From Escherichia coli (GTDB lineage Bacteria; Pseudomonadota; Gammaproteobacteria; Enterobacterales; Enterobacteriaceae): DNA of 64,000 nt. A program made the position numbers and the translations under genes. Positions 15,570 to 56,965 of this stretch are shown in pieces; the first letter of the stretch is position 1, and each line of letters starts with the position of its first letter. Location: the NCBI RefSeq assembly GCF_046105845.1, contig NZ_CP151004.1; one strand, 5' to 3'. The notes below the pieces were generated by a model. It was not told the origin of the DNA and made no database searches. It was given only the letters and a program-made list of their open reading frames with translations.

Positions 15570-15742
15570 AAAGTTCTTTTGTGTTGCATTGCTGGCGTAA
15601 ATGTCAGCAATGCAGCATTTCCTCACGATTCTCCTTTGACGATCGCACTTTTTGCTCGTTATGATGGCGTCGCTAGCCTCAGTAAATCCTTACTCCGGCG
15701 GTGCGCAACCCGTGCGCGTGAACCACTATCTGAATGCTCATC

Positions 15743-36171: not shown

Positions 36172-36254
36172 AAAAAAACCTGCTGGTGAGGCAGGTTCTT
36201 TTATTTACTATTTTCAGGCCCAACACCGCAGCCTGTGCAACATCGTGTTCCAAC
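36172..36254 (-). ncRNA. Candidate OrzO-like antitoxin sRNA, copy 1
   Basis: Minus-strand TATAAT at 36266-36261 with TTGCAA -35 at 36289-36284 (17-bp spacer); ends at hairpin CCTGCCTCACCAGCAGG followed by TTTTTTT (36195-36172). Confidence 0.45.
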
Positions 36255-36492: not shown

Positions 36493-36582
36493 ATGGACAC
36501 GCAGACACAAAAGTTAACCGTGCTCATTGCTGTACTGGAGCTATTAGTGGCTCTGTTACGGTTGATTGATTTGTTGAAGTAA
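36493..36582 (+). CDS. zorO: Type I toxin, ZorO/ZorP family (29 aa), copy 1
   Basis: AGGAGAG Shine-Dalgarno then MDTQTQKLTVLIAVLELLVALLRLIDLLK*; which copy is zorO versus zorP cannot be told from sequence alone. Confidence 0.75.
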   Translation: MDTQTQKLTVLIAVLELLVALLRLIDLLK

Positions 36583-36777: not shown

Positions 36778-36862
36778 AAATAAAAGAACCTGCTGGTGAG
36801 GCAGGTTCTTTTATTTACTACTTTGATGTTAAGTTACTGATAGTGCAACATGGCATCTCAAC
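36778..36862 (-). ncRNA. Candidate OrzP-like antitoxin sRNA, copy 2
   Basis: Minus-strand TATAAT at 36874-36869 and TTGCAA at 36897-36892 (17-bp spacer); hairpin at 36789-36805 followed by a U-rich tract. Confidence 0.4.
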
Positions 36863-37100: not shown

Positions 37101-37190
37101 ATGGACACGCTGACACAAAAGTTAACCGTGCTCATTGCCGTACTGGAGCTATTAGTGGCTCTGTTACGGTTGATTGATTTGTTGAAGTAA
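37101..37190 (+). CDS. zorP: Type I toxin, ZorO/ZorP family (29 aa), copy 2
   Basis: MDTLTQKLTVLIAVLELLVALLRLIDLLK*; differs from copy 1 only at codon 4 (CTG Leu versus CAG Gln). Confidence 0.75.
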   Translation: MDTLTQKLTVLIAVLELLVALLRLIDLLK

Positions 37191-55681: not shown

Positions 55682-55954
55682 ATGTCTCATACAATCCGTG
55701 ATAAACAGAAACTGAAAGCGCGTGCCAGTAAGATTCAGGGCCAGGTCGTGGCGCTCAAGAAAATGCTCGACGAGCCGCACGAATGCGCTGCAGTTTTACA
55801 ACAGATTGCTGCTATCCGTGGCGCGGTAAACGGTCTGATGCGGGAAGTGATTAAAGGTCATCTGACGGAACACATCGTTCACCAGGGGGATGAGCTAAAA
55901 CGTGAAGAAGATCTGGATGTCGTTCTGAAGGTGCTGGATTCATATATCAAATAA
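55682..55954 (+). CDS. rcnR: Ni/Co-responsive transcriptional repressor RcnR (CsoR/RcnR family)
   Basis: 90-aa [24 protein letters not shown]...; divergent from rcnA. Confidence 0.93.
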
Positions 55955-56043
55955 TTTATTAACGCGATTGTAAAACTGCCGGTTTTCCTCGTTTACAACG
56001 CGTGCGCTGGACATTACCATCCTCCTCTGCGATTTATCATCGC

Positions 56044-56176
56044 AACCAAACGACTCGGGGTGCCCTTCTGCGTGAAGGCTGAGAAATACCCGTATCACCT
56101 GATCTGGATAATGCCAGCGTAGGGAAGTCACGGACCACCAGGTCATTGCTTCTTCACGTTATGGCAGGAGCAAACT
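56044..56176 (+). ncRNA. TPP (THI-box) riboswitch in the thiM leader
   Basis: Leader contains GGGGTGCCCTTCTGCGTGAAGGCTGAGAAATACCCGTATCACCTGATCTGGATAATGCCAGCGTAGGGAA; Shine-Dalgarno GGAG at 56167-56170 lies in the expression platform. Confidence 0.85.
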
Positions 56177-56965
56177 ATGCAAGTCGACCTGCTGAGTTCC
56201 GCGCAATCTGCGCACGCGTTACACCTTTTTCACCAACATTCCCCTCTTGTGCACTGCATGACCAACGATGTGGTGCAAACCTTTACTGCCAATACCTTGC
56301 TGGCGCTCGGTGCATCGCCAGCGATGGTTATCGAAACCGAAGAGGCCAGTCAGTTTGCGGCTATCGCCAGTGCGTTGCTGATTAACGTTGGCACGCTGAC
56401 GCAGCCACGCGCACAGGCGATGCGTGCCGCCGTTGAACAGGCAAAACGCTCTCAAACACCCTGGACGCTTGATCCAGTAGCGGTGGGTGCACTCGACTAT
56501 CGCCGCCGTTTTTGTCTGGAACTTCTGTCTCATAAGCCAACCGCCATACGTGGTAATGCTTCGGAAATCATGGCATTAGCTGGCATTGCTAATGGCGGAC
56601 GGGGAGTGGATACCACTGACGCCGCAGCTAATGCGATACCCGCTGCACAAACACTGGCACGGGAAACTGGCGCAATCGTCGTGGTCACAGGCGAGGTGGA
56701 TTATGTTACCGATGGTCATTGCACCGTTGGCATTCACGGTGGCGATCCGCTAATGACCAAAGTGGTAGGAACTGGCTGTGCATTATCGGCGGTTGTCGCT
56801 GCCTGTTGTGCGTTACCAGGCGATACGCTGGAAAATATCGCATCTGCCTGTCACTGGATGAAACAAGCCGGAGAACGCGCAGTCGCCAGAAGCGAGGGGC
56901 CAGGCAGTTTTGTTCCACATTTCCTTGATGCGCTCTGGCAATTGACGCAGGAGGTGCAGGCGTGA
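56177..56965 (+). CDS. thiM: Hydroxyethylthiazole kinase
   Basis: 262-aa ORF; ThiM family sequence. Confidence 0.95.

Follow-up and report, generated by a model that had tools for sequence, protein, structure and literature searches.

The 150-nt 5' leader of thiMD in the 64-kb window, the whole stretch of Escherichia coli DNA analyzed in this work, is almost certainly the E. coli thiM TPP riboswitch, an element that sequesters the Shine-Dalgarno (SD) sequence and carries a secondary, Rho-dependent layer of control. Every testable defining feature of the RF00059 aptamer family and of an SD-sequestering expression platform is present, and no datum contradicts this explanation. The identities of the aptamer and the genes, the identity with K-12, the conserved and mutually exclusive predicted pairings, the lack of an intrinsic terminator and the rut-like composition stem from our own analysis; for TPP binding, repression of translation and the dependence on Rho we rely on the literature on the identical K-12 sequence.

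The riboswitch is already known and ranks among the best-studied riboswitches. The copy in the window is base for base the K-12 leader, holds nothing new and adds no new biology; its value lies in an annotation that a track of open reading frames misses. The intergenic region between rcnR and thiM, 222 bp in length, is almost filled by a promoter and a regulatory RNA of 150 nt that would set thiMD expression according to cellular TPP, and the ORF track is blind to both.

Genomic context and identity with the K-12 leader

The window is part of the E. coli chromosome and shows the gene order yehA-rcnB-rcnA-rcnR-thiM-thiD-yegX-yegW, which is the same as that of the K-12 MG1655 locus (yegX-thiD-thiM-rcnR-rcnA-rcnB-yehA). 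An initial annotation had named thiMD as the controlled genes, and both products indeed score far above the cutoffs of their models (Table 1). The GTG start codon of thiD and the stop codon of thiM share four nucleotides (GTGA). Upstream of the thiM leader lies the ORF for RcnR, and that for RcnA is also found upstream of thiM, on the minus strand.

Table 1. Features of the thiM leader and its surroundings, in window coordinates
Feature	Position	Strand	Basis
RcnR ORF	55682-55954	+	Upstream of thiM leader
Promoter-like site of thiMD: −35 TTTACA (55992-55997), 17-nt spacer, −10 TACCAT (56015-56020)	55992-56020	+	Consensus scan
Probable transcription start (nucleotide +1 of Bastet et al., 2017)	56027	+	Inferred; 7 nt past the −10 hexamer
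5'-terminal hairpin, 6 bp, UGCGAU/AUCGCA, 5' of the aptamer	56028-56044	+	All MFE predictions
TPP aptamer (THI element)	56046-56142	+	RF00059 covariance model
P1	56052-56055 / 56126-56129	+	Rfam alignment and pair listing
P2	56056-56059, 56061 / 56086, 56089-56092	+	Rfam alignment and pair listing
P3, C56065 bulged	56062-56068 / 56074-56079	+	Rfam alignment and pair listing
J3-2, CUGAGA	56079-56084	+	Sequence
P4	56098-56101 / 56120-56123	+	Rfam alignment and pair listing
P5	56104-56107 / 56114-56117	+	Rfam alignment and pair listing
Predicted anti-sequester (ON-state) stem, 56112-56130 with 56147-56166	56112-56166	+	Unconstrained MFE
Predicted OFF-state outer helix, 56132-56144 with thiM codons 4-8 (56186-56199)	56132-56199	+	Constrained fold
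Predicted SD-sequester (OFF-state) hairpin, UUGCUUCUUCA (56146-56156) with UGG(C)AGGAGCAA (56162-56173)	56146-56173	+	Aptamer-enforced fold
Shine-Dalgarno sequence of thiM, GGAG	56167-56170	+	Sequence; 6 nt 5' of ATG (56177-56179)
thiM, hydroxyethylthiazole kinase, 262 aa	56177-56965	+	TIGR00694, 334.7 bits (cutoff 256.4); RefSeq annotation
C-rich, G-poor region in thiM, matching the published rut site	56225-56250	+	Composition scan
Stem-loop (56250-56277) and equivalents of published Rho termination sites	56250-56288	+	Fold and PMC5499598
thiD, hydroxymethylpyrimidine/phosphomethylpyrimidine kinase, 266 aa	56962-57762	+	TIGR00097, 362.6 bits (cutoff 204.95); RefSeq annotation

The window leader is the K-12 thiM riboswitch sequence itself, rather than a homologue of it, which bears out the description of the element as a well-known one in the initial annotation. 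In a three-way alignment, positions 55983-56194, that is the region from 5' of the −35 box to thiM codon 6, are 100% identical with K-12 MG1655, and the same is true for positions 56201-56265. With the leader of b2104 the window shares the sequence from the promoter to codon 6, the flanking genes, the SD, the AUG, the anti-SD and the rut region, and all differences are confined to positions outside the leader. The sole difference upstream of it is a G at 55982 (T in K-12), 5' of the −35 box. Up to position 56300 there are four coding SNPs (56195, A/G, Gly7Ser; 56200; 56266; 56287), two of which reside in or beside the 3' side of the outer helix predicted for the OFF state. An alteration of the switch by the SNPs at 56195 and 56200 was considered and rejected, as the predicted energies deviate from those for K-12 by about 1 kcal/mol or less.

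Of 5426 complete E. coli genomes, 5424 contained a match to a 501-nt query comprising the leader, with a top identity of 99.8%. One genome at this level of identity carries, in the interval from rcnR to thiM, the RefSeq/PGAP annotation "TPP riboswitch" on the same 97 bases. Winkler, Nahvi and Breaker reportedly gave the first description of the aptamer in 2002, and its crystal structures are deposited as PDB 2GDI and 2HOJ.

The aptamer

The THI-box TPP aptamer claimed for the thiM leader in the initial annotation was recovered with the Rfam TPP covariance model, the very check proposed there. When all 4227 Rfam families were run against the whole 64-kb window at gathering thresholds (cmscan), RF00059 yielded a single match with a score of 71.2 bits (E = 5.1e-12), well above the gathering score of 54.3. 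The alignment is complete and untruncated, covering model positions 1-105 of 105, and the all-family scan detected no further TPP riboswitch in the window. The 3' end of the aptamer lies 35 nt 5' of the thiM ATG on the same strand.

Helices P1 to P5 can all be formed, and every listed pair is standard with the exception of one C-A mismatch that P3 shows in the Rfam register and that disappears when C56065 bulges. The optional stem P3a is missing, seen as an 11-column deletion in the RF00059 alignment. Besides CTGAGA in J3-2, the conserved motifs ACCTGA (56097-56102) and GCCAGCG (56113-56119) are present. From the crystal structures we take CUGAGA in J3-2 to be the pyrimidine sensor and ACCUGA...GCCAGCG in P4/P5 to be the pyrophosphate sensor. 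The selectivity for TPP would carry over to the window aptamer from the identical K-12 thiM leader, for which TPP binding kinetics have been measured (PMC5499598). The predicted 5'-terminal hairpin ahead of the aptamer may have a stabilizing function; in the leader alignment its stretch is not conserved beyond Escherichia.

Probable promoter and transcription start

The promoter-like site listed in Table 1 is the only sigma-70-like match in the region 55850-56300, its hexamers are the same in K-12, and it presumably acts as the thiMD promoter. Bastet et al. (2017, PMC5499598) number the leader from the transcription start and describe an RBS mutant, G142C, and an AUG mutant, U152A. Relying on this published numbering we infer that transcription starts at 56027, because only then does G142C correspond to G56168, the second G of GGAG, and U152A to T56178 in the ATG. 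The GGAG of the window is accordingly the RBS that was mutated in that work.

Between the stop codon of rcnR (55954) and the promoter no intrinsic terminator was detected (55955-55991), so that transcription of rcnR could run on into the thiM leader. The longer 5' extension arising from such read-through could affect folding of the aptamer.

Expression platform and predicted switching

Two mutually exclusive pairings are predicted for the region between the aptamer and thiM, and the SD sequence is part of the expression platform just as the initial annotation had it. In the unconstrained fold, the ON-state stem pairs GGGAAG (56122-56127) from the 3' half of the aptamer with the anti-SD CUUCUU (56149-56154) and encloses a small hairpin (56133-56136/56141-56144). 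When the aptamer is enforced, UUGCUUC is predicted to pair with GGAGCAA as the core of the OFF-state hairpin, and this SD-sequester hairpin also forms on its own, with a predicted energy of −14.4 kcal/mol for 56131-56182. The mean probability of the SD being unpaired is about 0.5 in the unconstrained ensemble (0.62-0.67 for GGA, 0.22 for the last G) versus 0.00 with the aptamer enforced. The predicted outer helix of the OFF state encloses both the SD hairpin and the AUG; as such it is not conserved in leaders of the Kosakonia/Enterobacter type.

For the transcript 56027-56200, the ensemble energy is −49.8 kcal/mol with the aptamer enforced compared with −55.8 kcal/mol for the free RNA, a gap of about 6 kcal/mol that could be paid by nanomolar ligand binding. 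The folding energy of 56040-56200 is close to that of shuffled sequence (z = −0.25). Such a weak value is expected because the RNA is bistable, and thermodynamic prediction alone would have missed the riboswitch.

Within 55850-56300 not a single terminator-like site was found on either strand, so no intrinsic terminator was detected in the leader. Firmicutes-type TPP riboswitches have the same aptamer fold and ligand (RF00059) and employ a terminator/antiterminator platform, unlike the thiM element of the window with its SD sequestration and its lack of a terminator hairpin with a U-tract.

Under the mechanism that we propose, the 3' half of the aptamer with GGGAAG would pair with the anti-SD CUUCUU when TPP is scarce. 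With the anti-SD engaged, GGAG and AUG would be free and thiM would be translated, and translation of thiD would probably be coupled to that of thiM via the GTGA overlap. Binding of TPP would close P1 to P5 and withdraw the 3' half of the aptamer from the anti-SD; the freed anti-SD would then sequester the SD by pairing of UUGCUUC with GGAGCAA, which would block translation initiation. In line with this, TPP represses a ThiM-LacZ translational fusion comprising six codons in the identical K-12 sequence (PMC5499598).

Translational control by TPP, as stated in the initial annotation, is consistent with the exclusive pairings, the lack of a terminator and the identity with K-12 (PMC5499598), but the statement is incomplete in omitting the Rho layer. 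The span given there, 56044-56176, correctly takes in the aptamer and the platform and ends directly ahead of the thiM ATG, and its description as an RNA feature invisible to the ORF track is apt for an intergenic promoter and leader RNA. The functional unit, on the other hand, exceeds this span: promoter and transcription start occupy 55992-56027, and the OFF-state pairing and the Rho element extend to about 56288, so that the regulatory unit appears to include roughly the first 110 nt of the thiM coding sequence.

The Rho-dependent layer and the primary level of control

In K-12, translational repression secondarily triggers Rho-dependent termination within thiM codons 20-34, which lowers thiMD mRNA (Bastet et al., 2017, PMC5499598). 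Transcriptional fusions are repressed by TPP only when they contain 34 or more thiM codons, and this repression is abolished by bicyclomycin (PMC5499598). Rho protects nucleotides 201-210 counted from the transcription start and terminates at nucleotides 231, 237 and 262 (PMC5499598), corresponding to 56227-56236 and to 56257, 56263 and 56288 in the window given a +1 at 56027. The C-rich, G-poor region of the window contains 36-40% C and 4-8% G in 25-nt windows, and just 3' of it a fold of 56200-56300 yields a 10-bp stem (56250-56277). Rho-dependent termination at thiM of the window would follow from the literature on the identical K-12 sequence (PMC5499598). As a secondary and indirect effect, untranslated thiM mRNA would expose the rut site at about codons 17-25, Rho would terminate around codons 27-38 and thiMD mRNA would decrease.

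Since TPP lowers thiMD mRNA, since inhibition of Rho abolishes the repression of transcriptional fusions (PMC5499598) and since a C-rich, G-poor tract follows downstream, it could be argued that the aptamer acts mainly on transcription, be it by intrinsic termination within the leader or by direct exposure of a Rho loading site there, and that SD sequestration is incidental. We regard this as extremely unlikely. The region 55850-56300 lacks a terminator-like hairpin with a U-tract, TPP represses the six-codon translational fusion but not transcriptional fusions of 6, 10 or 20 codons, and mutation of the RBS or the AUG alone also lowers the mRNA (PMC5499598). From the published fusions and the RBS and AUG mutants it follows that the action of Rho comes after translational repression and needs codons 20-34, not elements of the leader, and the published fusion series has already largely refuted a primarily transcriptional mechanism (PMC5499598). 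Sequestration of the SD with a dependent Rho layer is therefore the reading retained here.

The TPP riboswitches of E. coli thiC and thiB (tbpA) belong to the same aptamer class (RF00059) and respond to the same ligand in the same organism; they differ from thiM in that they reside at separate loci outside the window and have different expression platforms. Both are likewise described as translational switches with added control at the mRNA level (PMC5234074, PMC11487190, PMC10578472). For thiC, a regulatory pause located at the start site is reported (PMC5234074), whereas control of Rho by thiM is indirect (PMC5499598).

It is conceivable, though in our estimate very unlikely, that the Rho-terminated leader transcript (about 230-260 nt, 56027 to about 56257-56288) accumulates in thiamine-replete cells as a stable, TPP-bound molecule and serves as a trans-acting sRNA or as a buffer for TPP. 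The only basis for a role in trans consists of the defined 5' hairpin and the defined termination sites. In such a role the transcript would resemble the trans-acting riboswitch-derived RNAs of other bacteria that are alluded to in the introduction of PMC5499598.

Conservation across Enterobacterales

A scan of representative genomes for ThiM led to 80 loci in Enterobacterales. Together with the window, the 74 distinct leaders in which CTGAGA and thiM were spaced as expected gave an alignment of 75 sequences. P1, P2, P4 and P5 as well as the ligand-contact motifs are invariant throughout. These four helices are therefore uninformative on covariation, and it is the Rfam model on which the case for the aptamer structure depends. 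All three inner pairs of P3 exhibit compensatory changes, and P3 and the small hairpin in the platform are the only covarying helices.

Both alternative structures are maintained. For the OFF structure 92.6% of the alignment cells are paired, compared with 35-55% when the partners are slid by 1-3 columns; the corresponding values for the ON structure are 85.4% versus 34-52%. The CUUC:GGAG pairs are kept in all 75 leaders, the core pairs GGGAAG:CUUCUU are formed in 72-75 of them, and the SD sequence GGAG is unchanged in all but one (74/75). Sequence 5' of P1 is not conserved between genera.

This bears on the last and practically negligible explanation, namely that conservation in 55940-56146 reflects a minus-strand protein gene, for which an uninterrupted ORF of 68 aa (56146..55940) overlapping the aptamer could be cited, or that the Rfam match arose by chance: the match is full-length with E = 5e-12 under a structure-aware model, P3 varies by compensatory pair changes and by loop indels that would shift the frame, the sequence 5' of P1 diverges between genera as stated, and neither K-12 nor other RefSeq genomes have an annotated CDS at this place.

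Behind the invariant aptamer of the thiM TPP riboswitch, two platform designs can be distinguished (alignment columns ~113-170). The Escherichia/Kluyvera type combines UUGCUUC with GGAGCAA. In the Kosakonia/Enterobacter/Cedecea type, CCUGCCCGG is complementary to CCGGGCAGG, which overlaps the SD. Equilibrium folding gave a lower SD accessibility with the aptamer enforced than in the free ensemble in only 48 of the 75 leaders. A clean switch of the SD (0.0 versus about 0.5) was predicted solely for platforms of the Escherichia/Kluyvera type; in those of the Kosakonia/Enterobacter type, where the outcome is ambiguous, both ensembles have a partly paired SD. As the change is not clean in many leaders from outside Escherichia, the simple two-state equilibrium picture is not borne out family-wide, and the mechanism of the Kosakonia/Enterobacter/Cedecea-type platforms may be kinetic.

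Some relatives depart from this arrangement. The thiM leaders of Pseudocitrobacter vendiensis and P. faecalis (L030, L031:1300-1503) have kept the platform but no more of the aptamer than its 3' half, beginning with the P5 loop TAATGCCAG; the 5' part of about 60 nt is replaced by unrelated, AT-rich sequence, and RF00059 gave no match at the gathering score in these leaders. Only the anti-sequester (ON-state) stem is predicted for them, with the SD about 0.9 unpaired, and thiM is therefore probably constitutive in both species. A metagenome-assembled genome (MAG) of Pseudocitrobacter (L027) keeps the full thiM aptamer. At this locus a fluoride riboswitch (RF01734, 52.3 bits, L027:1205-1272, minus strand) is encoded about 100 nt upstream of the TPP riboswitch of thiM and on the strand opposite to it, and a sok antitoxin RNA (RF01794, 95.7 bits, L027:3341-3514, minus strand) lies downstream of thiD. 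In Providencia spp. (L053, L060 and L062; thiM with 64-65% identity), no TPP aptamer was found within 1.5 kb upstream of thiM, a gene that appears to follow another one closely in these organisms. Riboswitch control of thiM is consequently not universal in Enterobacterales.

Other RNA elements in the window

The Rfam scan also revealed two tandem OrzO-P antitoxin sRNAs (RF02083) on the minus strand, at 36172-36247 (101.3 bits) and 36782-36855 (90.2 bits). Each of them adjoins a divergent ORF on the plus strand (36493-36582 and 37101-37190) for a hydrophobic, ZorO/ZorP-like peptide of 29 aa, with the sequences MDTQTQKLTVLIAVLELLVALLRLIDLLK and MDTLTQKL... The arrangement suggests that a zor-orz type I toxin-antitoxin locus has been duplicated, a further feature that is missed by an ORF track with a length cutoff. 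Finally, a Peptidase-S11 RNA motif (RF03039) was detected at 15658-15738 on the plus strand with 72.8 bits (gathering score 34.8) and constitutes a cis-regulatory candidate. Judging from its position relative to K-12, it presumably sits upstream of pbpG, the gene for a PBP/D-alanyl-D-alanine peptidase.
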